NCBI GenBank assembly: GCA_043820815.1
Contig: JBDRDJ010000025.1
Span: 22,459-86,458 of the forward strand
Direction of reading: 5' to 3'
DNA: 64,000 bases
Origin: Candidatus Omnitrophota bacterium
GTDB lineage: Bacteria > Omnitrophota > Gorgyraeia > Duberdicusellales > 4484-171
Shown: piece by piece, positions 30,039 through 49,694 of the stretch
Position numbering within the stretch: position 1 is the first letter of the stretch
Layout of the letters: each line of letters opens with the position of its first letter
The notes under the pieces: generated by a model
The model's input: only the letters and a program-made list of their open reading frames with translations
The model's database searches: none
What the model was told of the DNA's origin: nothing
Made by a program: the position numbers and the translations under genes

Positions 30039-31535
30039 CTAAAAGTACAGGTCTCGCTCCCCTCTTTTTATTCGTTCATAATATAGCTTAAATCTTTGGT
30101 AGTAGTCAGGAAGAGATTTTTTTATTTCATCGATTTCTTTATTGATAATTTTTTCGCCGGCTAAAAGCGTTTTTTCTGAAGCAAAATCATCGAGCCATTC
30201 CCGGAACGTTAATACCGCGTTTAATTTACAGAATTTTGCTTCTTGACACTCGCGAAGCAGTTCCATAATACATTTACCGGTTCTCTGACATCTATAACCT
30301 GCTGTGCAGAAGGATGTTATATATCCTAACTCAGCGAATTCCATGATTAATTCATCAAGGCTGCGTGTATCGCCCAGTATAAATTGCTGTTTTGAGGCAA
30401 CCTGAGAGCTGGTTTCTTTACTGTAAGAGCCTATGCCGATCCTTGTTGAAGCATCGGTTTGAGTTATTCCTAAAGATAGGGATTTTCGGCGAATTTCTGC
30501 ATTTTCACGTGCCGTGATAATAAGTCCGGTATGAGGCACACAAAGCCTCAAAACAAGGATTATTTTCATAAAATCTTCATCACTCACTTTAAAAGCAGCA
30601 TTTGTGGTAAAAGGCGTATTTATCGCAGGCAGAAGGCGGGGAAATGATATGGTATGCGCCCCTACACCGAATGTTTTCTCAAGTTCAATATTATGAGCAG
30701 CTAAAGCCAAAACTTCAAATTTCCAGTCATAAAGGCCGAAAAGGGCCCCTAAGCCCACGTCATCTATACTCGCTTCAAATGCACGGTGCACCGCGTACAA
30801 GCGCCATTTATAATTTCCTTTAACAGTTCTTTGAGGGTGTATTTTGCTATAAGTTTGATGGTGGTAAGTTTCCTGAAAAATCTGATATGTCCCTATTCCG
30901 CAGCCGGCAAGGCGTTTTAATTCTTCAATAGAAAGCGCCGGTGCGTTTACGTTTACCCGGCGAATTTGACCATAGCCGCGCTTGGTGGGCACTTTAACGC
31001 CATAAATTGATTTTATGGAGTCTACCATGTAATCTATGTCATTCAAAGGGTGCTCGCCGTAGACTACTATGAGGCGTTTGTGCCCGATTGACCCGGCAAG
31101 TGTTTGCGTTTCGCTCAGTATTTCGTCCGTTGAAAGGGCCGCGCGTTCAATGTCTTTATTTGAATGGCGGAAACCGCAATAAAGGCAGTCGTTTATGCAG
31201 TGATTACCCAGATAAAGCGGTGCGAAGGTAACGATTCTGTTGTCGTAGATTTTTTTCTTAACAATTGCCGCGCTTTCTTTCATTTGAGAAAGCATATCAG
31301 GTTGGTTAACATTTAAAAGAGCAGCTGTTTCATCCATTGAAAGTGTTGCAATCGAGCGCGATTTAGCAAGAATATCGATTATTTTCTTTTTATCCGGGCT
31401 ATGATTGCGGTTAAGAGTATCGATAATGGATTCATCACGTATAAAATCTGAAGAACCCTTACAGTATTTATTTATCTGATCTTTTTTGATGCGTCCTTTT
31501 TTCCAGGAGGTGTTATTAAAAGATTCTACTTTCAT
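30039..31535 (-). CDS. hydG: HydG-type radical SAM tyrosine lyase (H-cluster maturase family) with variant C-terminal Cys motif
   Basis: FAPLYLGNHCINDCLYCGF (Cx3Cx2C), ThiH-like core, C-terminal SFCTAGYRCQRTG...FCKLNA and GERDLYF ending. Confidence 0.8.
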   Translation of the reverse strand: MKVESFNNTSWKKGRIKKDQINKYCKGSSDFIRDESIIDTLNRNHSPDKKKIIDILAKSRSIATLSMDETAALLNVNQPDMLSQMKESAAIVKKKIYDNRIVTFAPLYLGNHCINDCLYCGFRHSNKDIERAALSTDEILSETQTLAGSIGHKRLIVVYGEHPLNDIDYMVDSIKSIYGVKVPTKRGYGQIRRVNVNAPALSIEELKRLAGCGIGTYQIFQETYHHQTYSKIHPQRTVKGNYKWRLYAVHRAFEASIDDVGLGALFGLYDWKFEVLALAAHNIELEKTFGVGAHTISFPRLLPAINTPFTTNAAFKVSDEDFMKIILVLRLCVPHTGLIITARENAEIRRKSLSLGITQTDASTRIGIGSYSKETSSQVASKQQFILGDTRSLDELIMEFAELGYITSFCTAGYRCQRTGKCIMELLRECQEAKFCKLNAVLTFREWLDDFASEKTLLAGEKIINKEIDEIKKSLPDYYQRFKLYYERIKRGERDLYF

Positions 31536-31538
31536 GTG

Positions 31539-32189
31539 TTAAAAATTGTTTCTTTGTTTTGTAAAAAAAATAATACTTTCTAATTCTGTCGCCATATCGA
31601 CATTTGATACCCAGACATCATCGGGAACCCTAAGGATTATCGGAGAGAAATTAAGAATTCCTTTTATGCCGCAGGCACAAAGCTTGCTGGCTACTTCCTG
31701 GGCATTTTCCGGAGGTGTCGATATTATTGATATCCTTATCTTATTATTTCTTAAAATTTTATCTATGTTATTAATATCCTCTATTTTTACTCCGTTAAGA
31801 GTTTTACCGATTTTTCTCTTGTCGCAATCTAAGGCATGGGTTATTTTAAGATTAAACTGCCTGAATCCCTCAAAGGCAAGAAGTGCGCTCCCAAGCCTCC
31901 CGGCTCCTGTCAGCACTATTGGCCACTCTTTGTTAACTCCTAAAATCGTTTCAATTTCTTTAATTAGCCGGTTTACTTTATATCCCACTCCTCTTTTCCC
32001 GAATCCGCCAAAGAATGAGAGGTCTTTTCTGAATTGATCCGGTGTAACGTTTAATAATTTTGTTATCACACGCGAAGAAATTACTTCTTTGCCTTCGATA
32101 TGTAATTTTCGCAAACCCCGCAGATACAGGCTTAGGCGTTTTATTGTTTCCGAAGAAAAATTATTTTTATGCGTAGAGGTTTTTTTCAT
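31539..32189 (-). CDS. rex: Redox-sensing transcriptional repressor Rex
   Basis: TIKRLSLYLRGLRKL winged-helix N-terminus and GAGRLGSAL Rossmann motif, about 210 aa. Confidence 0.85.
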   Translation of the reverse strand: MKKTSTHKNNFSSETIKRLSLYLRGLRKLHIEGKEVISSRVITKLLNVTPDQFRKDLSFFGGFGKRGVGYKVNRLIKEIETILGVNKEWPIVLTGAGRLGSALLAFEGFRQFNLKITHALDCDKRKIGKTLNGVKIEDINNIDKILRNNKIRISIISTPPENAQEVASKLCACGIKGILNFSPIILRVPDDVWVSNVDMATELESIIFFTKQRNNF

Positions 32190-33489
32190 CTTTGTTTAAA
32201 CCTAAATCTGCAGGGGCTCTGCCTAAGAATTTCAGCATTTTTATCACTTCATCGACTTGGGACTTTAACCCATCGTTTATATGTGCTTTATCCGGATAAA
32301 TAGAATAAAGTTTTCTGCGGCTGATAGGTGTTACGTTAATCATAAGGGAATTCGCACCTGACATTAAACCTTTCTTTCTGGCATCAATACTTAAAGTTTC
32401 AAAAGCTGTTGTAACGGGAATTTTGGCATTTAGCGGATCAATTATACGCGCAAGGGCAATAACTTTAAGGACAAGATCCTGATTACAGGCAGGGTGGTTA
32501 CCTAAGGGAGTGCTCGGATGAGGGATAAACGGCCCAAAAGAATACATTTCGCAGCCAAGCTCTTTCGCTAAATATAAATCATTTATAATGTCATCATTCG
32601 TTTGGCCGGGAAGGCCGATAAGAGCGCCGGTCATGATAAGGTAGCCCATATCTTTAGCCGCTTTTAAATGTTTAATTCTTGTGCTTAAGTCATGATTTGG
32701 GTTGAGTCGGCAATATAGTTTTTCGTTTGATGTCTCAAATCTCAAGAGCAGCGCTCTTGCGCCGCAATTATAGAGTTCCTTAAGCCCCTCTACCCCTATT
32801 TCGCCAAAGCTTATTCCTATAAGGGTATCGGCGCCTTCCTTTATCTTTTTTACAATCATAGATAGATCCTTAATGGTGTATGAGGCAGTTTCTGCGCTTT
32901 GGAGAATAAGGGAGCCAAAACCGTAATCGCTAACAGCCCTAACGGCAGATTCAATCACTTCTTCATTTTTCATATGGTAACGAGGTATTTCTTTATTATG
33001 AATCGATATGCCGCAATAAAAGCAGTTACGTAAGCAATCGTTTGATATTTCGATTATTCCGTGAACACAACATGAGTTTTTGTGATATTTTTGACGGATA
33101 AAATTTGCCGCCTTAAGAAGTAAATCTAAATCTTTCGGGGCGTTAATATTAAGAAGGTAGGTAAGGTCGTTGCGAGAAAGCGCTATATTCTCCATGGCTT
33201 TATCAAGAATTAAGCGAAGTTTTTTATCAGTGGTTTCGTCCGGTTTAAAATCAGATAAGCGCCTGTCCACATCCTGAAGCTGGAAAAATAATTCTTTCCA
33301 GGCGCTAAGTATACTTTTTGCTTCATCCTCGGGTATTTTCTTTATTATGAATCCGCCCTGCGCGGAAACATAGTCGCCTTTTTCGAGCTTGTAGAATTCA
33401 TTCCGGGCTTTTTTCTCTTCGCCGAAGTAATCGACCAAGACTGTTGTGCCTTTAATATCCTTTACTATGCCTGGTATTGAATAACACAT
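32167..33489 (-). CDS. HypC/HupF-like domain fused to HydE-type radical SAM enzyme
   Basis: The N-terminal ~70 aa (MCYSIPGIVKDIKGTTVLVDYFGEEK...GDYVSAQGGFIIKKIPEDEA) fit the HypC pattern with Cys2. The remainder has CLRNCFYCG and BioB/HydE-like motifs (RFETSN, GLPGQT, FGPFIPHPSTPL). Confidence 0.7.
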   Translation of the reverse strand: MCYSIPGIVKDIKGTTVLVDYFGEEKKARNEFYKLEKGDYVSAQGGFIIKKIPEDEAKSILSAWKELFFQLQDVDRRLSDFKPDETTDKKLRLILDKAMENIALSRNDLTYLLNINAPKDLDLLLKAANFIRQKYHKNSCCVHGIIEISNDCLRNCFYCGISIHNKEIPRYHMKNEEVIESAVRAVSDYGFGSLILQSAETASYTIKDLSMIVKKIKEGADTLIGISFGEIGVEGLKELYNCGARALLLRFETSNEKLYCRLNPNHDLSTRIKHLKAAKDMGYLIMTGALIGLPGQTNDDIINDLYLAKELGCEMYSFGPFIPHPSTPLGNHPACNQDLVLKVIALARIIDPLNAKIPVTTAFETLSIDARKKGLMSGANSLMINVTPISRRKLYSIYPDKAHINDGLKSQVDEVIKMLKFLGRAPADLGLNKDEKNLYA

Positions 33490-33492: not shown

Positions 33493-33735
33493 TTATTCTA
33501 TATCAAACGAGAGAACTTGAATTATTGTGCCGGGGAAAAAGGTAATTTCTAAGTCCGCGCCGCATAGAATTGTATCTTTTGTTAATAAAGCGAATGTTTC
33601 TTTAAATGATTCTTCTTTTACACAAGTTAAGTCACCGATTTTTAAGTGAATTTTTGTAACCTTTTTCGCATTTTCCTTTTGAGCGTGTTCACATATTCCT
33701 TTAACAACGGGCTCGATTAAGTGTGTTTCATGCAT
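33493..33735 (-). CDS. HypA-like nickel-metallochaperone N-terminal domain only (no zinc-ribbon)
   Basis: 80 aa starting MHE (HypA Ni-binding MHE motif), with VTKIHLKIGDLTCV. The CxxC...CxxC Zn module expected in ~113-aa HypA is missing. Confidence 0.55.
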   Translation of the reverse strand: MHETHLIEPVVKGICEHAQKENAKKVTKIHLKIGDLTCVKEESFKETFALLTKDTILCGADLEITFFPGTIIQVLSFDIE

Positions 33736-34196
33736 TTTTCCACCTCATTGATTGCTGAAACTAATAAATTTAAACTGTTTTTTACTTCCTCCGAAATCTC
33801 TGAACCAAAGGTAACATTTTTGGGTTGAATTCCCAGAAGATAAATCACGGCATTGGTTTCCTTCTCTAATATTTCTATGAGCATATTTGGGGAAAGATCG
33901 TGAGTTGTAAAGCCGCTTGGCAGTATATCTTCTTTTTTTAGCAGTTCATAGGATCCGCAGGCTGCATTAAGATGAACAGCATCTACCAACAAAACCGTAT
34001 CCGGTTTTTCTTTAATTACTTTGCCAATATAATTTTCAGGAGCAGTTCCGCAGTCGATACAAATAAAATCAGAAGTGTTTTTAAGGCTGTTGACAAAAAG
34101 AGGCCCAAACCCATCATCGCCGCGTAAAATATTTCCAATACCTGCGATAACAACCTTACCTTTAAGAATTTCCTTTAATCTTTCTTCTATTTTCAC
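33717..34196 (-). CDS. Hydrogenase maturation endopeptidase (HycI/HyaD family)
   Basis: GIGNILRGDDGFGP motif and later HDLSP. GTG start. Confidence 0.8.
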   Translation of the reverse strand: MKIEERLKEILKGKVVIAGIGNILRGDDGFGPLFVNSLKNTSDFICIDCGTAPENYIGKVIKEKPDTVLLVDAVHLNAACGSYELLKKEDILPSGFTTHDLSPNMLIEILEKETNAVIYLLGIQPKNVTFGSEISEEVKNSLNLLVSAINEVEKCMKHT

Positions 34197-34254: not shown

Positions 34255-34863
34255 TTACTCAGTAGTAAGCGTGGTTTGCCGCCTGCATCGGGCACAAAGG
34301 ATTTTTGACCTGTCACAGCGGCCAAAGTCACGCAATGCAGAAGTTAAATTATCATCAATAATGCCGAGGCTTTTAAGGCGTGATAAATACAGCGTGGGGT
34401 TTGAATAGGTAAGTTCTCCGATGCGTTCGGCAATCCATTTAAGATGGTCTTTAGGGCCTATAACAGCGCCGCAAATTTCGCATAACTGTAACTCTTTTTC
34501 AATTGTTTCATATGCTTTGGTTCTATCAAAGAATGAAAGTTCCCATTCATTTGAAAGTTTAATACCTTCATTATCGGCTATGCATGCTGCCTGGCACTGT
34601 CCGCAGAATATACAGGTATCAGTATAGTGAATCATAGTCCTTACGGGATTTTTAGCATCAGTAGAATCTTGATGAGCAATCGCCTCAACCGGGCAGACTT
34701 CTTCGCAGGAAAGGCAGCCCACGCATTTATCCGCATTGAATTTCGGCTGGCCCCTGAAATTAGGATGAGCGATATGCGGTTCTTTTGGAAATTTCGAGGT
34801 GTAAGGCCCCTTTATCAAAGCAACAACCGCCTCTTTTAGTTCTCTAAGTTTAGGTAGCTTCAT
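34255..34863 (-). CDS. 4Fe-4S ferredoxin-type hydrogenase subunit (NuoI/MbhN-like)
   Basis: CVGCLSCEEVCPVEAI and CIFCGQCQAAC dicluster motifs. Confidence 0.75.
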   Translation of the reverse strand: MKLPKLRELKEAVVALIKGPYTSKFPKEPHIAHPNFRGQPKFNADKCVGCLSCEEVCPVEAIAHQDSTDAKNPVRTMIHYTDTCIFCGQCQAACIADNEGIKLSNEWELSFFDRTKAYETIEKELQLCEICGAVIGPKDHLKWIAERIGELTYSNPTLYLSRLKSLGIIDDNLTSALRDFGRCDRSKILCARCRRQTTLTTE

Positions 34864-34901: not shown

Positions 34902-35234
34902 TCAGGCTTCGCCTTCCTTGTCTTCTTTATATTTATCAACCACGCTTTCATCGCAGAGCTTAACTCCTGCCCGGTGGGCTCCTCTTGCAATTGCATGGGC
35001 AGCAACAGGAGAAGTCAGCAAAAGAAAAACCATGCATAAAAGAGCTTTAAACCCTGCGGCAGTCGTGCCAACAATCAAAAATGTGCCGAATAAGATACTG
35101 CATGTCCCAAGAGTAACGCACTTAGTCGCCGCCTGCAGGCGGTTATATACATCGGGAAGCCTTACCAGGCCAATACAGCCGATTAAGTCAAAACCAAGCC
35201 CGATACTGATAAGTAAAAAGCCAATAAATTGCAT
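34902..35234 (-). CDS. Mrp/Mnh antiporter subunit G-like (MbhC-type)
   Basis: GCIGLVRLPDVYNRLQAATKCVTLG matches the MnhG core. Confidence 0.75.
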   Translation of the reverse strand: MQFIGFLLISIGLGFDLIGCIGLVRLPDVYNRLQAATKCVTLGTCSILFGTFLIVGTTAAGFKALLCMVFLLLTSPVAAHAIARGAHRAGVKLCDESVVDKYKEDKEGEA

Positions 35235-35620
35235 TATTCCTCGAATCCTTTTCCTTCTAAATATTTAGATAGGGCAAGAGTGCTGATAAAGCTTTGCAAA
35301 GCCCATGCTATAGCAATATCGATATACCACGACCGTTTAGTTACAATAGTAAAAATACAGCAAAGGCCGACTATCATTATTCCCATTATATCTATTGCAA
35401 CAATACGGTCTGCGCCGGTTGGCCCAAGCGCTATCCGAAATAAGGCCAAAGCGAAGGAAATAAGCAAAACATAAAATGACCTGCTTAAGAATCCCGCATA
35501 CGGCATATCGCTCCAAAAAAGAAGCGTTGGAGGACGCATTAAAACATAAGCCGCAAGGCCTATTAAAATTAATAACCCGAGAAGCCAACGCTTAAATGAT
35601 TTATTTTTCCGCAGTTTCAT
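35234..35620 (-). CDS. Mrp/Mnh antiporter subunit F-like (MbhB-type)
   Basis: LGPTGADRIVAIDIMG motif. 3-TM small protein. Confidence 0.7.
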   Translation of the reverse strand: MKLRKNKSFKRWLLGLLILIGLAAYVLMRPPTLLFWSDMPYAGFLSRSFYVLLISFALALFRIALGPTGADRIVAIDIMGIMIVGLCCIFTIVTKRSWYIDIAIAWALQSFISTLALSKYLEGKGFEE

Positions 35621-35626: not shown

Positions 35627-36124
35627 CTATTCAAATATTTTAATCAATATTTTTTCAAAACGTTCAACTATAAGTTTAGTAGCCTGTTGTACATCTTTTG
35701 CTTTTACGTCGATCCAGTGAATGTAGAGAAAGCCGTTATCCTTATCAATATCCACGCTTAGGGTTCCCGGAGTAAGGGTAATAGAATTAGCAAGGAAAGT
35801 AAGTGCAGTATCAGTCTTTAAATTTGTTTTTACCTTAACAATTCCCGGGTTAATCGGAAGCATTGGGTGAACGACACGCCAGGCAACATCAATATTTGCT
35901 TTAAAACATTCCCAGATAAAGACCGGTAAATAGCAAGTAAAGAAATACCAGTATCTCAAAGGATGCCTTAAGATATGTGGACGGTTTATGAATAAGTCAC
36001 CTGTAAGAAAAGCTGTTAAAGCCGCAGCAAATATACCAATTATTATATGCTGGATATCCGGCGGCCAGTTTAGGAGCAGCCAGGTTACATAAGCAACAAT
36101 AAATAACACTAATCTTCGTTTCAT
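35627..36124 (-). CDS. Mrp/Mnh antiporter subunit E-like (MbhA-type)
   Basis: ITLTPGTLSVDIDKDNGFLYIHWIDV motif. Confidence 0.7.
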   Translation of the reverse strand: MKRRLVLFIVAYVTWLLLNWPPDIQHIIIGIFAAALTAFLTGDLFINRPHILRHPLRYWYFFTCYLPVFIWECFKANIDVAWRVVHPMLPINPGIVKVKTNLKTDTALTFLANSITLTPGTLSVDIDKDNGFLYIHWIDVKAKDVQQATKLIVERFEKILIKIFE

Positions 36125-37623
36125 TTTAAACCCTTTGAGATAATCTGCTTATAATCACTACCGTCGTAAAGGACTTTCGCTGCTTTTTCAAGAAAAACTT
36201 CTTTAGCAGGCTTTATTAAAAGCAGGCCGCTTATCAAACACAGAAAGGCAAGCATAGTCATTGAAATTTTCATGAAAAAGGGAATCTTTTTAATCTGGGT
36301 TAATTTAGCTGATAGCTCGCCAAAGAACACATTCTTAAGGACTTTTAGATACATTGCTAAGGTCAGAATGCTAACCAACACCGCACATAACGCATATTGG
36401 TTGTGTCCTGCTTCTACACATGCGATTATAATAATTAATTTGCTAAAAAAACCTCCAAAAGGCGGAATTCCCGCTATAGACATCGAAGCGATTATGTTTG
36501 TATTCCTTGTTACCGGTAATTTCTCTGCCAAACCGCCCATCTGGCGCATATCTCTGGTACCTGTTGCGTATTCTACGGCGCCGGAATTAAGAAATAGAAG
36601 CGATTTAAACAATGAGTGGTTGAAAAGATGAAAAAGGCCGCCCATTATTCCCAAAGGTGTATTTAATCCAATACCTAAAACAATATAGCCAACCTGGCTT
36701 ATTGAAGAGTAGGCTAAAAGCCGCTTGAAATCCCATTGGCCTATGGCAAGTATCGCGCCTATTACCATGGATATTGCTCCTAAAAACATAAGTATTGAAG
36801 AAAAAGCAGAAGTCATTCCCAATACATTGTAGAAAATTCTGCAAATAGCATATATTCCAAGAGATTTTATCAATATTCCCGACAAAAGAGCCGATATCGG
36901 CGCCGGAGCCGAAGGGTGAGCATCAGGAAGCCAGGCATGAAAAGGGATGAGCGCTGATTTTAGGCCAAATCCCATAATAAAGATTGCGCTTACAAGAAGA
37001 ATTATTTTTGACGGGCCATTTTGACTTATTACAATTGCCATATCAGCCATATTAAGGGTTGAAGTGTAGCTGTATAAAAATACAATACCAAGCAGTATAA
37101 AAAGAGACGCCACCGTGCCCATTACCGCATATTTAAAAGCAGCTTCAAGTTCATGGCGTTCGGTTCCAAAAGCGACAAGAGCATAACTTGCAATTGAGGC
37201 AATTTCAAGGAAAACAAAAAGATTAAACAAATCCCCGGTTATAACAACACCATTCATTCCAGCCAGCATAAGCATAAAAAGAGTATAAAATTTCCATTTA
37301 GAGGTAAATTTCTTCATGTAATCAACAGAAAAAATAGAAACTAATAAAGCGACAAGGTTTATTACAATCAGCATAAAAGCGCTTAAGGAATCCAGCACAA
37401 AGGAAATCCCGTAGGGGGGTATCCAGCCGCCGATTTTATAAATTAGCGGGCTTTCAAGAGAAGAAAAGAATGCCGCGAATAATGAGCATACGAATAAAGA
37501 CAGTGCGGCTATATTTCCCGCAGCATCAGCAATACCTTTTACTTTCTTGCCTAAAAGTGAGATTAGAAATGCGGCAAATAAAGGTATAGCAACAAAAAAC
37601 GGCAAGATAGAAACAATATTCAT
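36121..37623 (-). CDS. Proton-conducting antiporter-like subunit (MrpD/NuoN/MbhH-like)
   Basis: 500-aa polytopic protein with FHAWLPDAH, LAYSSISQVGY and HSLFKSLLFL motifs. Confidence 0.8.
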   Translation of the reverse strand: MNIVSILPFFVAIPLFAAFLISLLGKKVKGIADAAGNIAALSLFVCSLFAAFFSSLESPLIYKIGGWIPPYGISFVLDSLSAFMLIVINLVALLVSIFSVDYMKKFTSKWKFYTLFMLMLAGMNGVVITGDLFNLFVFLEIASIASYALVAFGTERHELEAAFKYAVMGTVASLFILLGIVFLYSYTSTLNMADMAIVISQNGPSKIILLVSAIFIMGFGLKSALIPFHAWLPDAHPSAPAPISALLSGILIKSLGIYAICRIFYNVLGMTSAFSSILMFLGAISMVIGAILAIGQWDFKRLLAYSSISQVGYIVLGIGLNTPLGIMGGLFHLFNHSLFKSLLFLNSGAVEYATGTRDMRQMGGLAEKLPVTRNTNIIASMSIAGIPPFGGFFSKLIIIIACVEAGHNQYALCAVLVSILTLAMYLKVLKNVFFGELSAKLTQIKKIPFFMKISMTMLAFLCLISGLLLIKPAKEVFLEKAAKVLYDGSDYKQIISKGLK

Positions 37624-37958
37624 CCTCTAAGCTCCCGGATTTTGGTTATATCAAAAGTTCCGTACTTTTCGTATATTCTCATGGCAATTGCAATTAATAA
37701 GGCTGTTGAGGCAAGGCTTATTACAATTGAAGTAAGTACAACCGCCTGCGGCAGGGGATCAACCATTATTTTAATGTCGGAATCCAGAGAATGTATTGGT
37801 GAGCGCCCGCCTGTTTTATAACCGACAAGAATAAACAGTAAATTTACCGCATATTCAGCAATTACTATACCGACAATAATTTTAATTATATTACGCTTTC
37901 GTACAATACAGTAAAGTCCTGTGCAGAAAAGGCCCAGACATAACAGATACAGCGACAT
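37620..37958 (-). CDS. Mrp subunit C / NuoK-like (MbhG-type)
   Basis: 112-aa 3-TM protein in the expected position. IIVGIVIAEYAVNLLFIL and DPLPQAVVLTSIVI. Confidence 0.7.
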   Translation of the reverse strand: MSLYLLCLGLFCTGLYCIVRKRNIIKIIVGIVIAEYAVNLLFILVGYKTGGRSPIHSLDSDIKIMVDPLPQAVVLTSIVISLASTALLIAIAMRIYEKYGTFDITKIRELRG

Positions 37959-38407
37959 TATTTATCCTCCGTATCGAATTTTAATAAAATTAAGGCTGTA
38001 AAGATTGCAAATAACCCCGCCCCTACTTTAAGGCTGATTGCGATATTTGATAAAGGTATTGTTCCGGCGCTAAACAGCCTGAAAGGGCGGCCTAAGGGGA
38101 GGAAATTATAAAAGAAATAGCCTCCGGTTAAGCCGGCCAAAGCGATAGCTAAGAACATGAGCGCGCCGAAATTTTCGAAAAAAGATGTTCTTGACTTTGA
38201 AAGTTTATCAAGGGCTGCTTTCTTTCCGTAAGCAAGCATCAAATGTATAAATGAAAGTGCAATTATTACTCCTCCGGCGAATCCTCCCCCCGGGGAAATA
38301 TGGCCGTGAGAAAGGATATGGATTCCGTAAAGCAAAATTAAACCTACGGTAAGGCGGGTTATTGTCTTAACGATTACCGACATTCCTTCATCATGTTCTT
38401 TACTCAT
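37958..38407 (-). CDS. Mrp subunit B-like (MnhB domain; MbhF-type)
   Basis: GHISPGGGFAGGVIIA is the MnhB-domain signature. The start was set at the internal MSKEH (8-nt overlap with the upstream stop). The track ORF extends to 38464. Confidence 0.7.
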   Translation of the reverse strand: MSKEHDEGMSVIVKTITRLTVGLILLYGIHILSHGHISPGGGFAGGVIIALSFIHLMLAYGKKAALDKLSKSRTSFFENFGALMFLAIALAGLTGGYFFYNFLPLGRPFRLFSAGTIPLSNIAISLKVGAGLFAIFTALILLKFDTEDK

Positions 38408-38990
38408 CGTCTTCCTCTGATAAAAGCCCTTCTTCTTTTCTTCCTTTTTTGCGCACAAGCGCAAGGACGCCTATTACAGCCGTAAACAGAACTGTTGCTT
38501 CGCCTATGGTATCGTAGGCACGGTAATCAAGTATTACCGCGGAAACAAGATTTGCCGCGCCGGTTTGCCTAAAGTTTAGCTTACTGGAATCAATAGCTGC
38601 CGGGTTTTTTATAAATCCTTCCTCAAGGTATTTTTTGGATACTCTCATAATAGGTTTTCCAAACTGAGGTAAATCTGAAAGGGCTTTTGCGGATATGAAT
38701 AAAAATAAAATTATGAAACAAACAGCAATCGAAGTGTTTAGAAGCCATCTGCCGGTTGTTGAAAAAGGCAAATCTTTTTTTAAGGTAGCACGGATTAGTA
38801 TGATTAAACAGAGAATTTCAACAACTAACTGAGTGATTGCAACATCCGGTGCCTTCAGCAATAAAAACATTATAGACAGCGCAAGGCCGATTGCACCGAC
38901 AGCTATAACCGAAGACAAGAGATCCTTAACCTCAATAGCAATTATTGCTCCTGCGATCATAAATAAAATTAAAATGTGAAGTTCTAACAT
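38400..38990 (-). CDS. MbhD/MbhE-like membrane subunit (DUF4040 + MrpA-C-terminal-like region)
   Basis: APDVAITQLVVEI (DUF4040-like) and NLVSAVILDYRAYDTIGEATVLF motifs. Confidence 0.6.
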   Translation of the reverse strand: MLELHILILFMIAGAIIAIEVKDLLSSVIAVGAIGLALSIMFLLLKAPDVAITQLVVEILCLIILIRATLKKDLPFSTTGRWLLNTSIAVCFIILFLFISAKALSDLPQFGKPIMRVSKKYLEEGFIKNPAAIDSSKLNFRQTGAANLVSAVILDYRAYDTIGEATVLFTAVIGVLALVRKKGRKEEGLLSEEDDE

Positions 38991-39041: not shown

Positions 39042-40652
39042 TTAACACCAGGCAAGATATGTAGGTAATATACCGTTATGTAAGTGCCCGAATATTCTGT
39101 TTCCGGCAAGTATTAAATTCTTTAATACTGCATAGATATCAAAAAGTTTAATTTTGGCTGCGCTGTAAATAACTTTTATAAACGGAAGATCTTTAACTGT
39201 ATCATAGAAAGATACTCCCGATATTTTCATGCCGGGATGCTGTTTGGCATCTTCACCTCCGACAAAAATATCAGTCTGGCGCATTTTCTGAAATGATCCC
39301 ATTAGATAAATGACGAATCCAACCGCAACGCCCGCAATCAACAGCAATGTCGCAAGGCTCGCATTCCACATTCCGGCAAAAGTTACGTCTTTGTCTATGG
39401 TTGAGAAGATGAACAGCCCTAAGGGAATACGGTATGCAAAAACACCAAAAACAACACATAAAACAGCAAGAATTACATTAGGCAGCCACATTTGGACAGA
39501 AACTTCTTGGGGTTGAGAAACTTCAGAAGTTGAACCGTTTATTTTTGTAGGTTGGCCTAAAAATACAGCGTGAATTAATTTCATAAAGCTTGCCAGAGTA
39601 AGTGCGCTTCCAAAAAGTGCGGCAACAAGCCATAAAACCCAAAGCCCCGATGAGCCCCTAGAAGTTTCAATGACCCCTTGATATATCATCCATTTTGATG
39701 CAAAACCGTTTAAAGGAGGGATTCCTGATATGGCCAGCGATGCAATTAAGAAACACGCAAATGTTATCGGCATAAATTTAGCAATGCCGCCAAGCTTATC
39801 GAGGTCGGTAGTTGATGTCTTTTTTTGGACTGACCCGGCAGAAAGGAATAATGAATATTTGTAAATAGCGTTATTAAGCATATGAAAAAGCCCCCCGGCA
39901 ATTCCTATGGGGGTTAAGGTTGCAATTCCAAGAACCATATAGCCAGCCTGGCTTACAGCATGGTATCCAAGGAGCCGTTTCATGTCATGCTGGATTAAAG
40001 CCATCATTACAGCGGCGATAATTGTAAAACTCCCTATTGCCATCATGAATGTGCTCATCTTTGCATCTAAAACAAACAAATCTATGGTTATGCGCGTAAA
40101 GAAATAAATTCCGATTAGTTTATCAAGGCACGCCGGAAGGTAAGCGGCAACCGGTATGGGTGCATCCTCTGCCGCATCAGGAACCCATGTGTGAAAAGGC
40201 ATAACTCCTGCTTTGGCAAATGCGCCTGCCGCAAGGCATAGGTATGCCCAAACCGCAAGCTTCGAATTAAGTAATATGCCCGGTTGGCTTAAGGAAAGGT
40301 CGCGTGTTAATTTCCATATAAGGGCAAGCCCCATGATCATGATAGCGTCAGTGCCGCCTACAATAATAAAGGTTTTTTTAGCGGTTTTAAGGGCAGCGGG
40401 ATTTTGATCAAAGCCGATTAAAAGGTAAAGCAACAGGCCTAAGAATCCCCAGAAAACCATCAATACAAGAAGATTACCTGCAAACACCGCTCCCAGCGAA
40501 ACAATTAAAGTAGCAAAAATATAAATAAAAAAACCAACAAGCCTTTTAGATTGCTGCATAAACCCTAATGAATAAACTGCAATAAATACAGTAAAAAGGC
40601 ATATAAAGAATCCCACAAACGCCGATAGGCTATCAATAGAAAAATAATGCAT
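39042..40652 (-). CDS. Proton-conducting antiporter-like subunit (MrpA/NuoL-like)
   Basis: 536-aa polytopic protein with FHTWVPDAAE, LGYHAVSQAGYM and HMLNNAIYKYSLFL. Confidence 0.8.
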   Translation of the reverse strand: MHYFSIDSLSAFVGFFICLFTVFIAVYSLGFMQQSKRLVGFFIYIFATLIVSLGAVFAGNLLVLMVFWGFLGLLLYLLIGFDQNPAALKTAKKTFIIVGGTDAIMIMGLALIWKLTRDLSLSQPGILLNSKLAVWAYLCLAAGAFAKAGVMPFHTWVPDAAEDAPIPVAAYLPACLDKLIGIYFFTRITIDLFVLDAKMSTFMMAIGSFTIIAAVMMALIQHDMKRLLGYHAVSQAGYMVLGIATLTPIGIAGGLFHMLNNAIYKYSLFLSAGSVQKKTSTTDLDKLGGIAKFMPITFACFLIASLAISGIPPLNGFASKWMIYQGVIETSRGSSGLWVLWLVAALFGSALTLASFMKLIHAVFLGQPTKINGSTSEVSQPQEVSVQMWLPNVILAVLCVVFGVFAYRIPLGLFIFSTIDKDVTFAGMWNASLATLLLIAGVAVGFVIYLMGSFQKMRQTDIFVGGEDAKQHPGMKISGVSFYDTVKDLPFIKVIYSAAKIKLFDIYAVLKNLILAGNRIFGHLHNGILPTYLAWC

Positions 40653-40654: not shown

Positions 40655-41839
40655 CTATGTTTTGAACCTTCTTCGAATCTTTTCCGTTTTTTCCTGAGAT
40701 AATTTAACTAAATCCTGGCCGTTGTAAAGTTTCTTTCCCTTTTCGTCGCGCACTGCTATTCTTTCAGTACAGCAATAACAGGGGTCAATCGCCGCAAGAA
40801 TTATTGTCGCGTCGGAAATTGTCTCGCCAATAACAGTGGATTTATATGTAGGTAAATTCATAAAAGTAGGGGCCCTGACTTTATGCCTTGCCGGCCGGTT
40901 AGTGCCGTCGCTTCTAACATAATGAAAAGTTTCGCCCCGCGGGGCTTCTATATGGCCGATGCCTTCACCCGGAGGTATATCGGTTATGTTTGCATCAATC
41001 TCGCCTTTTGGGAGGCTCTTAAGGCAGTATTTAATTATCTTGATTGATTCAAAAGTTTCCAATATTCTTACTACGGCTTTGTCAAACACATCGCCGTTAT
41101 TCGTTACAATCATCTCCCAGTCCATCTGATCATACGCACCGTAGGGGCAGTCTTTTCTTAAGTCTCTGGCAATTCCTGACGCGCGTGAAGTTGGGCCTAA
41201 GGCGCAGTAGCTTATCGATTCTTCTTTGGTAAGTATTCCGATTCCCTTTGTCCGTGCGTGCAAAACAGGATCGTCGAGGACGGCTTTTTTAAGCATTGTA
41301 AGTGCAGGCACAATAGAGTCAATCTTTTTTAACACGCCGGGTATGTCATCCGCTGATATATCTCGGCGTACCCCCCCCGGTTTAAACATCGCATAATTAT
41401 TTCGATTGCCTGAGAGGACTTCCATTACATCAAGTATTTCCTCCCGGAGTTTCCACGCCCACATAAATACTGTGTTATAGCCTAAAAAATGGCCTGCCAA
41501 GCCAAGCCAAAGTAAATGAGAGTGAATGCGTTCGCCTTCAGCAATTATTGTGCGTATATATTTTGCTCGCAGTGGAACTTCTATGGGGATTATGTCTTCA
41601 ACCGCGCGGGTATAAGCAAAGGGATGGCTTGTCGAACATATCCCGCAAATGCGCTCAATAACGAATGTTGACTGGTCAAAAGTCTTGCTTTCAGAAAGTT
41701 TCTCTATGCCGCGGTGATTATAGCCAATTGAGACATCAATATCCACAACTTTTTCCCCCTCAACAGTAAGTGTGAAAAACTCCGGTTCTTCCTGCAAGGG
41801 GTGGTATGGGCCAATCGGAACTATTGTCTTTTTCGCCAT
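40655..41839 (-). CDS. Group-4 [NiFe] hydrogenase large subunit (MbhL/EchE/HycE-type, NuoD-like)
   Basis: N-terminal RICGICSTSH and C-terminal DPCYCCTER Ni-binding Cys pairs. A 34-aa tail after CCTER is consistent with endopeptidase processing. Confidence 0.9.
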   Translation of the reverse strand: MAKKTIVPIGPYHPLQEEPEFFTLTVEGEKVVDIDVSIGYNHRGIEKLSESKTFDQSTFVIERICGICSTSHPFAYTRAVEDIIPIEVPLRAKYIRTIIAEGERIHSHLLWLGLAGHFLGYNTVFMWAWKLREEILDVMEVLSGNRNNYAMFKPGGVRRDISADDIPGVLKKIDSIVPALTMLKKAVLDDPVLHARTKGIGILTKEESISYCALGPTSRASGIARDLRKDCPYGAYDQMDWEMIVTNNGDVFDKAVVRILETFESIKIIKYCLKSLPKGEIDANITDIPPGEGIGHIEAPRGETFHYVRSDGTNRPARHKVRAPTFMNLPTYKSTVIGETISDATIILAAIDPCYCCTERIAVRDEKGKKLYNGQDLVKLSQEKTEKIRRRFKT

Positions 41840-41890: not shown

Positions 41891-42400
41891 TTAAACACCT
41901 CTATCTCTTATCGCACCGTTATCCCACTCCTGATAATCACGGCGTAAAGGATAAAGCCCTTCTGGCCATTCATCGGGTAAAAGGAGCCTGCGTAAATCAG
42001 GGTGGCCTATGAAATTTACGCCTAAGAGTTCATGGATTTCTCTTTCTATCCAGTTTGATCCTTTAAAAACTCTGGTTAAGGAATCAATCTCTAATTTATC
42101 TTTTGCGAGAACGGCTCGAAGCGAAATAACTAAATTAATTTCTTCTATTGTAAAATGGTAAAGAATTTCAATTGTGTGCGGACAGTCAACGCCCGAGGCA
42201 ATATTAAACCTTGCGCCCAGGCCGTTAAAAATATACGTAGCTATCTTAACCAGGCCTTGGGATTTTATTTCAAAATAAACGCGTGTTTGTGATTTGTCTA
42301 TAGTGTTAACAATCGAATCCTTGAAACGCGTTTGTAGATCTTGTAAAATTTCTTCTTTGTTCATTTTGAGAATTTTATTTACCTGTTTTAACTTTTTCAA
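41891..42400 (-). CDS. NuoC/MbhK-like hydrogenase subunit
   Basis: NWIEREIHELLGVNFIGHPDLRRLLL motif. The start may be the internal MNKEEIL at 42364. Confidence 0.8.
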   Translation of the reverse strand: MKKLKQVNKILKMNKEEILQDLQTRFKDSIVNTIDKSQTRVYFEIKSQGLVKIATYIFNGLGARFNIASGVDCPHTIEILYHFTIEEINLVISLRAVLAKDKLEIDSLTRVFKGSNWIEREIHELLGVNFIGHPDLRRLLLPDEWPEGLYPLRRDYQEWDNGAIRDRGV

Positions 42401-42800
42401 TAAGTTTAACCACCCCTGCTATTATAGCTTCAGGTTTAGGGGGGCAACCCGGGATGTAAACATCCACGGGAATTATTTTATCAACAGGAACCGGGCAATT
42501 ATAGCTGTGTATGAACATTCCCCTTGATAAAGAACATTCCCCAATTGCAACGACTAAGCACGGTTTAGGCATCTGGGTGTAGACATTTTTTATCCTGGGT
42601 ATGCATTTTCTGTTTGCCGAACCGGTTACAAGAAGGACATCGGCATGTTTAATGCTTCCGGCTAAAAGCATGCCGAATCTTTCTATATCAAACCTCGGCG
42701 TTAAACAGTCGAGGATTTCAATATCACAGTTGTTACAGCTTCCGGTTGAGAGATGAAATACCCATGGTGATTTAAGAAGCGCCTTTAGTTTTATATTCAT
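42375..42800 (-). CDS. Group-4 [NiFe] hydrogenase small subunit (NuoB/MbhJ-like)
   Basis: GSCNNCDIE, GECS and PGCPPKPE cluster-binding motifs. Confidence 0.85.
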   Translation of the reverse strand: MNIKLKALLKSPWVFHLSTGSCNNCDIEILDCLTPRFDIERFGMLLAGSIKHADVLLVTGSANRKCIPRIKNVYTQMPKPCLVVAIGECSLSRGMFIHSYNCPVPVDKIIPVDVYIPGCPPKPEAIIAGVVKLIEKVKTGK

Positions 42801-43745: not shown

Positions 43746-44299
43746 GCTTTATCAAATTGCCAATGCGTTGAATGAACAATTATACTATCCCCCACAAGAA
43801 AAGAGTGCTCATCTAATTCTATATCTCCGCTTTTAAGGCTAAGGGCACCATGGGGACATGATGAAATGCAAAGAGGCTCGTTGGCGCTGCTTCTTCTGTT
43901 AAGACAGAAATCGCAATTATGAATAAAAAGCGGAACATGTTCCGGATAAATCGTTCCATAAGGGCAGGCGTGAGAGCATGATTTACAGCTAATACAGCGC
44001 ATGTTGTGGCGGATAAGGAGTTTACCTTTCTCTGATTGCTGCTCTAACGCTTCCTTAGGACAGGAATTAACGCAATGCGGTTCTTCGCATTTTCTGCATA
44101 CTAAGGCATATGTTGCCAGTTCGCAAACAGACACAATGCCATTGTTGTCAGGATGGTAGTAATAGCTGCATTTGACTACACAATCCTTGCATTGCCCCGC
44201 AGAACAAATATCTAAATCAACGAATAGCCGCTTATCGCTCGCCCCCTTCGGGTTAATATTCAGTTTACCTTGATGCAGCTGTTGTGCGCTTGTGTCCAT
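43742..44299 (-). CDS. Poly-ferredoxin-like 4Fe-4S protein (HycB/DmsB-like)
   Basis: CRKCEEPHCVNSCP, CISCKSCSHACPYG, and CDFC...CISSCP motifs. Confidence 0.7.
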   Translation of the reverse strand: MDTSAQQLHQGKLNINPKGASDKRLFVDLDICSAGQCKDCVVKCSYYYHPDNNGIVSVCELATYALVCRKCEEPHCVNSCPKEALEQQSEKGKLLIRHNMRCISCKSCSHACPYGTIYPEHVPLFIHNCDFCLNRRSSANEPLCISSCPHGALSLKSGDIELDEHSFLVGDSIIVHSTHWQFDKA

Positions 44300-44302
44300 T
44301 TT

Positions 44303-45118: not shown

Positions 45119-45126
45119 AACGCTTT

Positions 45127-46176: not shown

Positions 46177-46194
46177 TTGTGAATAAAATCACAA
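46177..46194 (-). promoter_or_regulatory. Rex operator (near-consensus inverted repeat)
   Basis: TTGTGAATAAAATCACAA compared with the Rex consensus TTGTGAAnnnnTTCACAA (one mismatch). It lies 22 nt upstream of the first hydrogenase-operon start codon and 9 nt downstream of the predicted -10. rex is encoded in the same operon. Confidence 0.7.
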
Positions 46195-47689: not shown

Positions 47690-47705
47690 ATCTAACCTTA
47701 AAATA

Positions 47706-49684: not shown

Positions 49685-49694
49685 TGAAATTAGC

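Follow-up and report, generated by a model that had tools for sequence, protein, structure and literature searches.

A HypC–HydE fusion protein encoded with HydG in a [NiFe] hydrogenase operon of a Candidatus Omnitrophota bacterium

The hydrogenase operon

The window considered here is a stretch of 64,000 nt from a Candidatus Omnitrophota bacterium (GCA_043820815.1, JBDRDJ010000025.1, positions 22,459–86,458), within which a single, tightly packed minus-strand operon runs from 46155 to 30039. It encodes a group-4 Mbh/Mrp [NiFe] hydrogenase, a HycI-type protease, an 80-aa HypA, a HypC–HydE fusion, Rex and HydG, and around the fusion gene the neighbours overlap or stand no more than 58 nt apart. 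Upstream of the operon is a promoter-like site on the minus strand (46204–46232: TTGACA, a 17-nt spacer, TAATAT, TG), recognized as a consensus match only. Between its −10 element and the start codon of the first gene (46155) lies a candidate Rex operator found by motif search, the perfect palindrome TTGTGAATAAAATCACAA (46177–46194, with no strand assigned); it is the sole zero-mismatch match within the window, and by our own estimate (12 specified bases in 128 kb, both strands included) about 0.01 perfect boxes would be expected by chance.

The first three genes (43742–46155; this and all the following genes are on the minus strand) specify electron-input subunits, identified by Pfam as an AsrA-like Fer4_22 subunit (45127–46155), an AsrB-like FAD/NAD/Fe-S protein (44303–45118) and a CooF-like Fer4_11 subunit (43742–44299); the same three-subunit module has been described for the Mbh of Saganbacteria (PMC6349859). 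Pfam matches likewise identify a NuoH-like membrane subunit (42822–43745; NADHdh), the [NiFe] small subunit (42375–42800; Oxidored_q6), a 30-kDa subunit (41891–42400; Complex1_30kDa) and the large subunit (40655–41839; Complex1_49kDa and NiFeSe_Hases). The last of these had been read from the sequence as a group-4 enzyme, and both metal-binding motifs, RICGICSTSH (41624–41653) and DPCYCCTER (40760–40786), are present in it, the second being followed by a C-terminal tail of 34 residues that is presumably removed by HycI. Then come Mrp/Mbh antiporter-type membrane subunits (39042–40652, 38400–38990, 37958–38464, 37620–37958, 36121–37623, 35627–36124, 35234–35620 and 34902–35234), assigned to the Pfam families MnhB/E/G, MrpF, MbhD/E and Proton_antipo_M, and a 2×[4Fe-4S] subunit (34255–34863; Pfam). 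It is the L1 and L2 Cys motifs, the small subunit and the Mrp-type antiporter subunits together that place the enzyme in the Mbh/Mrp type of group 4; our own data reach group 4, and the label 4g comes from published work on Omnitrophota (Williams et al., 2021).

Next to the fusion gene, as the sequence-only reading had proposed, are HycI-like and HypA-like genes. HycI (33717–34196) scores 110 bits against TIGR00072 (cut-off 47.45) and 112.2 bits against TIGR00142, and its gene overlaps the downstream hypA gene (33493–33735) by 19 nt. The 80-aa product of the latter, here called mini-HypA, matches only positions 1–70 of the 112 in the Pfam HypA profile, and its 64.8 bits against TIGR00100 fall under the equivalog cut-off of 88.1: it keeps the nickel-binding MHETH N-terminus and has no zinc-finger domain, there being no CxxC pair.

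Beyond the fusion gene lie two genes that the sequence-only reading had overlooked. The first, which encodes the redox-sensing repressor Rex (31539–32189; Pfam Put_DNA-bind_N and CoA_binding), shares its initial 23 nt with the end of the fusion gene. The second, two genes downstream of the fusion in the same operon, encodes a HydG-type tyrosine lyase (30039–31535), which scores 428.5 bits against TIGR03955 (cut-off 312.15) and matches Thermoanaerobacter italicus HydG (4WCX) with E = 4.5e-126. It has a radical-SAM motif, CINDCLYC (CX3CX2C), at residue 113, and its alignment with TiHydG pairs one His with that of 'MLYHANH', which we take to be H265, the ligand of the dangler Fe. Its C-terminal cluster motif is a variant one (FCTAGYRCQRTGKCIM...FCKLNA, 30216–30311): compared with the canonical CX2CX22C, the form FCTAGYRCxRTGKCIM...C has its second Cys shifted by three positions and one extra Cys. 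This variant is common to 26 of the loci surveyed below, the others having the canonical motif.

Neither HydA nor HydF, nor any of HypD/E/F, had been noticed in the window by the earlier reading. The same result came from Pfam scans of the hydrogenase cluster and nearly all other ORFs of at least 100 aa, and from phmmer searches of all window ORFs of at least 50 aa seeded with E. coli HypA–F and with HydF and HydA.

The two domains of the fusion protein

The fusion ORF (32167–33489, minus strand) starts with ATG and encodes 440 aa beginning MCYSIPGIVKDIKG; its coordinates, strand and start proved to be exactly those originally given. The HypC domain (residues 1–78, 33256–33489, minus strand) was delimited from Pfam, alignment and AlphaFold. 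As had been supposed, it belongs to the HypC/HupF family: residues 1–64 match the whole 65-position HupF_HypC profile (PF01455) with 43.7 bits (cut-off 28.5), although the score against TIGR00074 is 37.1 bits against a cut-off of 48, and the alignment with Thermococcus kodakarensis HypC (2Z1C) is end to end (E = 7e-9). In the N-terminal MCYSIPG, Met is followed by Cys2, probably the Fe ligand as in the HypC family; 116 of 120 homologues and every full-length 50% representative have this Cys, in the form MC(Y/L)xIP. AlphaFold predicts a five-stranded OB fold at residues 7–52 (strands 7–13, 16–21, 24–29, 40–44 and 47–52; pLDDT about 90) and then a long connecting helix (54–78). A His that is conserved in the HypC family (E. 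coli H51, in 'VHxGFA') has given way to Gln44 here and to Gln in almost all fusions of the Omnitrophota type; different residues occupy the place in the remaining fusions, and none of the fused HypC domains compared keeps the His. This residue is said, from work by Soboh and colleagues in 2013, to be needed for Fe/CO2 binding.

Residues 94–440 (32170–33210, minus strand) constitute a HydE-type radical-SAM barrel, identified by NCBIfam, alignment and Foldseek. Pfam finds Radical_SAM at residues 146–303 (57.5 bits) and BATS at 321–423, and the CX3CX2C motif CLRNCFYC, on which the original assignment to HydE had drawn, is at residues 152–159 (33013–33036). That assignment holds, the best NCBIfam model being HydE (TIGR03956, 239.4 bits, just below the equivalog cut-off of 254.6), far ahead of PylB (143.5 bits), BioB (102.3 bits) and HmdB (82.4 bits), and the closest solved structure by sequence being Thermotoga maritima HydE (E = 2e-64). 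TmHydE also provides the top Foldseek matches to the AlphaFold model (TM-score 0.91–0.96, 38–39% identity; rmsd 1.5–1.8 Å for the best), in which a full (β/α)8 barrel is predicted. Since the model of the whole fusion has a pLDDT of 93.2 and a pTM of 0.93, the HypC and HydE domains are predicted to behave as one rigid body; residues 1–10 have a lower pLDDT (77).

In all of 133 fused HydEs the residues C63/C67/C70, E58, Q107, L157 and E161 (T. maritima numbering) are conserved, and R180, M224 (131/133), M291 (133/133), Y303, Y306 and T268/T269 are retained almost without exception, position 309 being K or R in 132. According to a computational study (PMC11826987), E58, M224, M291, Y306 and K309 process Fe(Cys)(CO)2(CN) or bind the Fe(I) monomer, M224 and M291 being the monomer-binding sites, whereas R54, T134, R155 and T269 are in contact with the CN ligands of the product, an Fe(I)2 dimer. 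Of these four CN-contact residues only T269 is kept in fused HydEs. R54 has become His in 133/133, R155 is Gly or Ala in 133/133 (with a conserved Arg one position earlier, at 154, where TmHydE has Asp), and Thr at 134 is found in 0/133, mostly having given way to Phe or Cys; the fusion in the window has His143, Gly at the T134 position and Arg245-Ala246. Among 84 canonical HydE representatives, on the other hand, R54 is present in 78, R155 in 78 and T134 in 77. The fused HydEs form an exclusive clade with three unfused HydEs that bear the same signature (93 of 100 bootstraps), and they are a separate lineage whose product pocket, to judge from these replacements, appears remodelled. We had expected beforehand that unfused HydEs with the signature would occur in [NiFe] contexts, and one was found so placed: its gene begins 4 nt before a [NiFe] large-subunit gene (...DPCMSCAAH...) ends, and HydG comes next.

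A real two-domain maturation protein is encoded by the ORF, with a HypC-type iron chaperone joined to a specialised HydE-type radical-SAM enzyme. The suggestion that an assembly error or frameshift might have joined two genes is excluded by the recurrence of the architecture in at least 120 clusters at 90% identity.

Relatives of the fusion and their gene neighbourhoods

The search for other HypC plus Radical_SAM fusions advocated in the sequence-only reading yielded more than 130 protein clusters, with at least 120 clusters counted at 90% identity and about 20 at 50% identity, and a scan of 185,579 species genomes gave 466 loci encoding relatives of the fusion; counts out of 80 below refer to the best 80 of these 466. 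They occur in Omnitrophota, Margulisiibacteriota/Saganbacteria, Atribacterota, Spirochaetota/Brevinematales, Elusimicrobia, WOR-3 and Falkowbacteria. The neighbourhoods are mostly of the [NiFe] kind, [NiFe] structural genes or HycI/HypA genes being present at 74 of the 80 loci (group-3 type at about 44 and group-4 type at about 17). Typically the fusion comes just after the large subunit, HycI and HypA, and HydG is often next; HydG is present at 51/80 loci and Rex at 41/80. Among 60 HypA homologues adjoining fusions, 55 are of 80–83 aa and without CxxC pairs, and most have the MHExH N-terminus. In Omnitrophota relatives the order Mbh–HycI–mini-HypA–fusion–Rex–HydG is identical to that in the window at a protein identity of only 58–61%.

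The association with HydG sometimes extends to fusion, HypC–HydE–HydG proteins of 906 and 881 aa being encoded in group-3b-like [NiFe] clusters. At another locus (L010) a HydE–HydG fusion that lacks HypC adjoins HydF and an [FeFe]-hydrogenase homologue. HydG is absent within 6 kb at about 20 loci having at least 3.5 kb of downstream sequence, among them that of the cultured Caldatribacterium, in which no HydG was seen within 10 kb; at four loci with full flanks the fusion gene stands alone amid unrelated genes.

Possible routes to the iron centre

[NiFe] and [FeFe] hydrogenases are a textbook case of convergent evolution, and their maturation is taught as two separate systems, HypA–F and HydE/F/G. 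The presence of the fusion and of HydG inside a [NiFe] operon, here and in hundreds of bacteria most of which are uncultured, points to an undescribed way of building the Fe–CO–CN centre. The idea of cross-talk raised by the sequence-only reading, in which radical-SAM chemistry would feed an iron–ligand unit to a HypC-type carrier, is as a mechanism hypothetical, and it is supported by every comparative test that we ran: the fusion sits with [NiFe] genes belonging to two groups; HydG is its usual companion and in some cases part of the same protein; the HypC-less HydE–HydG fusion adjoins HydF and an [FeFe]-hydrogenase homologue instead; and the fused HydEs are a separate clade with a seemingly remodelled product pocket. 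The strongest single support is the adjacent HydG.

The reading that we judge best, and probably correct, is that the module provides a tyrosine-derived radical-SAM route to the Fe–CO/CN unit of the [NiFe] hydrogenase. The domain identities, the layout of the operon, the recurrence of the fusion, its linkage to [NiFe] genes and the subfamily signature are results of the analysis; the chemical steps, the direction of transfer and the possible dispensability of HypD/E/F we infer as follows. As in [FeFe] maturation, HydG would cleave tyrosine and assemble on its C-terminal cluster an Fe-carbonyl-cyanide unit. The HydE domain would take up the cysteine-bound unit from HydG, and its 5′-deoxyadenosyl radical would strip off the cysteine ligand, leaving a mononuclear Fe(CO)x(CN)y on the conserved methionines. 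Two such units would not be dimerised for HydF, the residues that hold the cyanides of the dimer being replaced; instead the unit would be handed to the cysteine at the N-terminus of the attached HypC domain, which would insert it into the apo large subunit. Mini-HypA would then supply nickel, and HycI would trim the C-terminal tail. The module would in this way replace, or at least bypass, the HypE/HypF carbamoyl-phosphate route and the HypD scaffold. Several observations count against this reading: the fusion loci that lack a nearby HydG, the four lone fusion genes, the [FeFe] hydrogenase genes beside HydG at some loci (see below), and the conserved Arg at position 154. In addition, the known product of HydG carries 2 CO and 1 CN, and the [NiFe] site needs 1 CO and 2 CN, an exchange for which there is no candidate gene here.

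That mismatch would be avoided if HypC/D/E/F encoded elsewhere assembled Fe(CN)2CO, with HydG and the fusion giving CO or pre-carbonylated iron and the HypC domain docking on HypD. The domain does keep the N-terminal Cys and OB fold used for HypD binding, and at one locus (L009) a separate canonical HypC, with its His, adjoins the fusion, so the fused HypC domain may not be the final carrier. HypB at three loci, too, indicates that Hyp genes have not been generally lost from these lineages. We nevertheless think such an auxiliary role unlikely. Sequence flanking 93 fusion loci, about 1.5 Mb in all, yielded no HypD/E/F, although the same method did detect HypA (60), HycI (69) and HypB (3) there, and the HypC His is replaced in all the fused domains. 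At one locus (L062) with the order hypA–hypB–hypC::hydE and hydG convergent, the fusion and HydG occupy the place that hypC–hypD–hypE have in canonical operons. Moreover, for the closed 1.52-Mb genome of Candidatus Centrionella anaeramoebae only HybD, HypA, HypB and a HydE–HypC fusion are listed as machinery for hydrogenase maturation (bioRxiv 10.64898/2026.04.11.717937).

A second alternative is that the module works for an [FeFe] hydrogenase whose genes lie elsewhere, with the HypC-like domain as a generic Fe–CO/CN carrier that replaces or assists HydF, and the position in a [NiFe] operon reflecting shared regulation by Rex. HydE and HydG are, after all, known only as [FeFe] maturases, and the HydG of the window passes the HydG equivalog cut-off. 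HydF-like matches were found at only 2 of the 80 loci and HydA-like matches at 7; at 7/80 Rex and HydG are separated by an [FeFe] hydrogenase gene, so that some of these genomes can put at any rate HydG to use for [FeFe] enzymes, and at one locus (L056) a small HydF C-terminal domain directly follows HydG. However, four fusion loci (L029, L041, L067 and L070) have a second, unfused HydE with canonical residues (two of these are cut by the end of the locus, leaving just two of the three signature positions readable), near an [FeFe] hydrogenase gene in the first three and a HydF fragment in the last. In three of the seven [FeFe]-bearing loci, then, the fused copy is an extra paralogue. HydF goes with the HypC-less HydE–HydG fusion, HypC is a [NiFe]-specific chaperone family, the di-iron product residues are replaced in every fused HydE, and the fusion directly follows the large subunit, HycI and HypA in two [NiFe] groups and several phyla. 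Furthermore, group 4g [NiFe] and group A3 [FeFe] hydrogenases have been reported from different genera of Omnitrophota (Williams et al., 2021). We consider service to an [FeFe] enzyme very unlikely. It is hardly credible that HypC instead presents either the large subunit in its apo form or the cysteine at the fusion's own N-terminus for post-translational radical-SAM modification with no cofactor precursor involved: peptide-modifying systems often link a radical-SAM enzyme to a chaperone that binds the substrate, and the pLDDT of the first 10 residues may suggest a mobile N-terminus, but the residues that process Fe(Cys)(CO)2(CN) are kept (E58, M224, M291, Y306, K/R309) and the association with HydG, sometimes by fusion, would be purposeless.

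The tyrosine-derived route can also be stated in a complete form, as a third route in Omnitrophota and several anaerobic phyla by which Fe(CO)(CN)2, made from tyrosine by HydG and the specialised HydE, reaches the fused HypC as a mononuclear species, with a zinc-less mini-HypA and without HypD/E/F or carbamoyl phosphate; in this form we hold it tentatively, at somewhat short of an even chance.

Compared with the HypC–HypD–HypE–HypF system of E. coli and T. kodakarensis, the module is alike in its OB-fold HypC with N-terminal Cys, its HypA and HycI-type protease, and a target large subunit with standard CxxC...CxxC ligands. It differs in that HypC is fused to a radical-SAM enzyme and has lost the conserved His, HypA has no zinc domain, HypD/E/F were not found in the window or at 93 related loci, and CN and CO would come from tyrosine rather than carbamoyl phosphate. 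With the [FeFe] HydG/HydE/HydF system it shares a HydG above threshold and a HydE of the same fold, radical-SAM motif, and catalytic and Fe-binding residues; yet the operon has neither HydF nor HydA, the HydE is just under the cut-off and in its own clade, and HydG has the variant C-terminal Cys motif. HydEF of Chlamydomonas is a known fusion of maturase genes. Like it and the HydE–HydG fusion of L010, HypC–HydE would join consecutive maturation enzymes and channel a labile organometallic intermediate, but those two stay with HydF or HydA in the [FeFe] system, whereas HypC–HydE crosses to a [NiFe] chaperone. HmdB, which acts with HcgA–G in cofactor synthesis for the [Fe]-hydrogenase Hmd, sets the precedent of a radical-SAM enzyme of the HydE/BioB kind that works for a hydrogenase other than an [FeFe] one; it is a detectable relative, yet scores 82 bits against 239 for HydE, the Hmd cofactor is a different one (FeGP guanylylpyridinol), and there are no Hmd or Hcg genes in the window. 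HypX, the formyl-THF decarbonylase of aerobes, is a CO source for O2-tolerant [NiFe] hydrogenases and so is likewise accessory to diatomic-ligand supply, but it is unrelated in fold and chemistry, and the present module is anaerobic and could supply both CO and CN.

To our knowledge it is unsettled where anaerobes obtain the CO ligand for the [NiFe] site, and the tyrosine-derived route, if true, would give one answer. The evidence points to a HydE lineage of its own, fused to HypC and partnered by HydG, as the maturase of [NiFe] hydrogenases of groups 3 and 4 in hundreds of species of several phyla. If so, the [FeFe] and [NiFe] maturation systems, thought to be unrelated, have chemistry in common; some [NiFe] enzymes draw their diatomic ligands from tyrosine; and a much smaller set of proteins (HydG, HypC–HydE, mini-HypA and the protease) might suffice to make [NiFe] hydrogenases in other hosts. 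The proposed route is now testable, since Caldatribacterium species bearing the fusion are in pure culture (PMC13408713).

In the earlier literature we found one passing mention of the fusion, the Centrionella preprint cited above. [quoted passage not shown] Current annotations of the fusions are 'radical SAM protein', 'biotin synthase', 'HypC family chaperone' and '[FeFe] maturase HydE', and fusions counted as HydE would wrongly suggest [FeFe] hydrogenase metabolism.

A HypC-HydE fusion within a hydrogenase operon

The protein that the sequence-only reading had picked out as a HypC-like domain fused to a HydE-type radical-SAM enzyme proved to be just that. Its gene occupies 32167-33489 on the minus strand and encodes 440 amino acids beginning MCYSIPG, of which residues 1-64 form a complete HupF_HypC domain (Pfam, 43.7 bits against a cut-off of 28.5), followed by a Radical_SAM domain (146-303) and a BATS domain (321-423). 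HydE is the top-scoring curated NCBIfam model, at 239.4 bits (slightly below its equivalog cut-off of 254.6), and PylB (143.5), BioB (102.3) and HmdB (82.4) follow. The nearest solved structures by sequence are Thermotoga maritima HydE (TmHydE; E = 2e-64) for the HydE part and, matched over the full length, Thermococcus kodakarensis HypC for the N-terminus. An AlphaFold model (74 homologues used; pLDDT 93.2, pTM 0.93) predicts a HydE barrel preceded by a five-stranded OB fold (7-52) and a long helix (54-78), and its nearest PDB folds are exclusively TmHydE entries (TM-score 0.91-0.96). PylB, BioB, HmdB and ThiH were rejected as identities for the radical-SAM domain, all being far under HydE by sequence and fold.

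An assembly or frameshift artefact can be ruled out, because the architecture, and the linker too, is conserved at 37-64% identity across hundreds of independent assemblies. The identical protein is on record at NCBI from a Candidatus Omnitrophota MAG (95,488-bp contig). The same two-domain architecture is found in at least 120 clusters at 90% identity (all of those among the matches listed), which, this exact match aside, are 54-64% identical to the window protein; when 1.84 billion representatives were searched exhaustively, the fusion was present in about 20 clusters at 50% identity, the lowest at roughly 35% identity. The N-terminal MC(Y/L)xIP(G/A) is nearly invariant among homologues.

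The fusion gene belongs to a tightly packed operon read from 46155 to 30039 on the minus strand. This Mbh-type operon opens with an electron-input trio (AsrA-like, AsrB-like (FAD/NAD) and CooF-like; 43742-46155), also described as an 'oxidoreductase module' for the Mbh of Saganbacteria (PMC6349859), which suggests that the hydrogenase may exchange electrons with NAD(P)H besides ferredoxin. Then come the NuoH-like, small and 30-kDa subunits, the [NiFe] large subunit (motifs RICGICSTSH and DPCYCCTER; tail of 34 residues), eight membrane subunits of Mrp/Mbh type with a ferredoxin-like subunit, HycI, an 80-aa HypA (33493-33735) that keeps MHExH and ends ahead of the zinc domain (mini-HypA), the fusion, Rex and, finally, HydG (428.5 bits against an equivalog threshold of 312). 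There are overlaps of 19 nt between HycI and HypA and of 23 nt between the fusion and Rex; 3 nt separate HypA from the fusion and Rex from HydG. The sequence-only reading contained neither HydG nor Rex; it saw no HydA, HydF, HypD, HypE or HypF among its listed ORFs, and ORF annotation of the window likewise shows none of them, nor HypB. The first start codon is preceded, at 46177-46194, by a perfect 18-bp operator for Rex, TTGTGAATAAAATCACAA; upstream of this operator is a promoter-like site with a good -35/-10 pair (46204-46232, minus strand), so that the operator follows the -10 element. An operator at the promoter and a rex gene inside the operon imply that the hydrogenase and its maturases are probably under NADH/NAD+ control.

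The remainder of the window holds LPS, glycosyltransferase and housekeeping genes. Large cell-envelope gene sets flank the operon on both sides (872-24128 and 46643-57757), with numerous glycosyltransferases of the GT1, GT4 and GT9 families, Wzy/Wzz/Wza-like proteins, LpxK, a Kdo transferase and a fusion of a lipid A acyltransferase to an ELM1-like domain. For a 360-aa radical-SAM/SPASM protein in the polysaccharide region (20546-21628, minus strand), no link to the hydrogenase module was found. Near the right end (57879-58760 and 62638-63852, minus strand), genes for a Xer-type tyrosine recombinase, an ORF6N-domain protein and a PD-(D/E)XK/Cas4-like nuclease may be mobile-element or defence-related material.

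Distribution and genomic neighbours of the fusion

When 185,579 species (one genome each) were scanned for the subfamily-specific peptide C[VI]HGI[ILV]E[FI]S, the pattern matched 472 times, and 466 of the matches encode a relative. Judged by record titles, the best 80 of these 466 loci are predominantly from Omnitrophota, with Margulisiibacteriota/Saganbacteria, Atribacterota, Spirochaetota/Brevinematales, Elusimicrobia, WOR-3 and Falkowbacteria also represented. Among the Atribacterota is the cultured Caldatribacterium inferamans SIUC1, and the Caldatribacterium species in which the fusion lies in a group-3 operon (loci L080 and L082) are H2 producers in pure culture (PMC13408713). Atribacter laminatus was set aside as not relevant, because it is without [NiFe] hydrogenases.

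The ORFs of the fetched loci, with flanks of at most 10 kb, were annotated by phmmer using seeds from Escherichia coli, the window and one control locus. [NiFe] structural genes or HycI/HypA accompany the fusion in 74 of the best 80 loci (of 466), HydG in 51 and Rex in 41. Two Omnitrophota relatives (58-61% identity) show exactly the order Mbh-HycI-miniHypA-fusion-Rex-HydG, and the usual order (small subunit, large subunit, HycI, (mini-)HypA, fusion, (Rex), HydG) recurs, among the best 80, in both about 44 group-3-type loci and about 17 group-4 Mbh loci, the large subunit being about 8 kb upstream of the fusion in group-4 operons. HypC, HydE and HydG are joined into one protein in two triple fusions (906 and 881 aa), each encoded within a soluble, group-3b-like [NiFe] cluster. 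The six loci without hydrogenase genes comprise two that are truncated and four with full flanks and the fusion gene alone. Among the 60 HypA homologues beside fusions, 55 are mini-HypAs of 80-83 aa that retain the nickel-binding MHExH N-terminus and have lost the entire zinc-finger domain with both CxxC pairs; only four neighbours of fusions are full-length HypAs with both pairs. In one locus, judged by its gene content to be from a CPR-type bacterium (L009), HypC, fusion and HydG face a group-3b operon; the HypC here is a stand-alone protein of 76 aa with the canonical His (LLIHGD), encoded directly upstream of the fusion gene (9766-9996, plus strand), and two HypC-type modules therefore coexist there.

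The HydG of the window aligns end to end with TiHydG, and the His matching the dangler-iron ligand is retained. Its C-terminal motif (residues 409-440; 30216-30311, minus strand) is FCTAGYRCQRTGKCIM...FCKLNA rather than CxxC...C: compared with the auxiliary-cluster motif CxxCx22C, FCTAGYRCxRTGKCIM...C has its second Cys shifted by three positions and one extra Cys. Of the loci, 26 share this variant, among them 16 of the 17 group-4 loci, and the canonical motif is present in most group-3 loci and in the triple fusions. The idea that the variant divides [NiFe]-only loci from those that also have [FeFe] genes was dropped, because it is found in some group-3 loci as well and the triple fusions are canonical.

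Naming of the fusion proteins is inconsistent between sources, and NCBI has no dedicated model for them. In 8 million full texts we found a single sentence on the system (a 'HydE-HypC fusion' in Candidatus Centrionella anaeramoebae; bioRxiv 10.64898/2026.04.11.717937) and no dedicated study, and genomic papers on the hydrogenases of Omnitrophota, Saganbacteria and CPR do not discuss maturation. Because there is no model and only this one sentence, we regard the recombination of Hyp and Hyd maturation seen here as a system not yet described.

A HydE subfamily with a remodelled pocket

An alignment was made of 133 fused HydE domains, 84-87 canonical representatives and TmHydE, whose numbering is used here (verified by C63/C67/C70, M224 and M291). 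All or nearly all fused HydEs keep E58, Q107, L157, E161, R180, M224 and M291, as well as Y303, Y306, T268/T269 and K/R309. In all 133, however, R54 is replaced by His and R155 by Gly or Ala, and none has Thr at T134 (mostly Phe or Cys, with Gly in the window protein); D154 to R, Y156 to L, V289 to S, G48 to K and G195 to a bulky hydrophobic residue are further fixed changes. In a 2025 QM/MM study of TmHydE, M291 and M224 hold a mononuclear Fe(I)(CO)2(CN)S species, cysteine breakdown is assigned to E58 and K309, and R54, T134, R155 and T269 are in contact with the CN ligands that the Fe(I)2 dimer product carries (PMC11826987). Read against these roles, a computational assignment of the pocket, the kept and changed residues indicate that the fused HydEs have probably retained the chemistry that leads to the monomer, and that the place of the dimer is remodelled.

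The signature also occurs in three unfused HydE representatives, for which a [NiFe] context was predicted beforehand. The gene for the first has its start within a [NiFe] large-subunit gene, 4 nt from the end of the latter (whose product ends in DPCMSCAAHFLKVRWNEA), and is followed by HydG. The second, with an H-F-G signature, is on an archaeal contig that carries histone-fold, DUF359 and DUF447 genes (L012, 4766-7208, plus strand); HydG again comes next, and there is no hydrogenase in the 5-10 kb around the pair. The third is a fragment. In a neighbour-joining tree, the fused HydEs and these three form an exclusive clade (93 of 100 bootstraps).

A possible maturation route and its alternatives

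The anatomy of the fusion and its genomic linkage are directly observed; from them we infer, as the most likely reading, all of the following chemistry. HydG would convert tyrosine to an Fe-CO/CN unit, from which radical chemistry of the HydE domain would remove the cysteine ligand; Cys2 in the tethered HypC domain would then catch the mononuclear unit and pass it to the large subunit, with nickel coming from mini-HypA and the tail being cut by HycI. Several points tell against this. The known product of HydG has 2 CO and 1 CN, whereas the [NiFe] site has 1 CO and 2 CN; the assignment of pocket residues is computational; HydG or hydrogenase is not close by at some loci; and others have an adjacent [FeFe] hydrogenase.

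Alternatively, canonical HypCDEF encoded elsewhere might carry out assembly, the module supplying only CO or pre-carbonylated iron, which we consider unlikely. In about 1.5 Mb of locus flanks, phmmer found zero matches to HypD, HypE or HypF and three occurrences of HypB. One locus (L062) has hypA-hypB-hypC::hydE, a convergent hydG and then housekeeping genes, the radical-SAM pair taking the usual position of hypD/E.

It is less probable still, and in our view doubtful, that an [FeFe] hydrogenase encoded elsewhere is what the module serves, its only tie to the [NiFe] operon being co-regulation. An [FeFe] hydrogenase gene does lie between Rex and HydG in seven of the 80 loci (L067, L029, L041, L051, L079, L087 and L090; 588-609 aa, beside a group-3 [NiFe] operon; one confirmed by Pfam), but the synteny of the fusion, the pattern of HydE paralogues and a HydF control argue against this explanation. 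A second, unfused HydE is present in four loci, three with the [FeFe] gene (L029, L041 and L067) and one beside a HydF fragment (L070); it has the canonical R-T-R in L067 and L070, and the truncated copies in L029 and L041 are canonical at both readable positions of the three. In the control, a HydE-HydG fusion without a HypC domain adjoins HydF and an [FeFe]-hydrogenase-like sensor. A role of the radical-SAM domain in modifying the large subunit is very improbable, given the conserved substrate-processing residues and the partnership with HydG.

Two [FeFe]-related genes deserve separate mention. The [FeFe] hydrogenase confirmed in L067 (16036-17814, plus strand; Fe_hyd_lg_C, 297 bits) has TSCSSAW in place of TSCCP, so that the usual second Cys is missing. 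In an Omnitrophota locus (L056), an 85-aa ORF directly after HydG (12757-13014, plus strand) is similar to HydF solely in the C-terminal part of its tetramerisation/cluster-binding domain (83 bits), and resembles either a remnant or a mini-HydF fragment standing alone.
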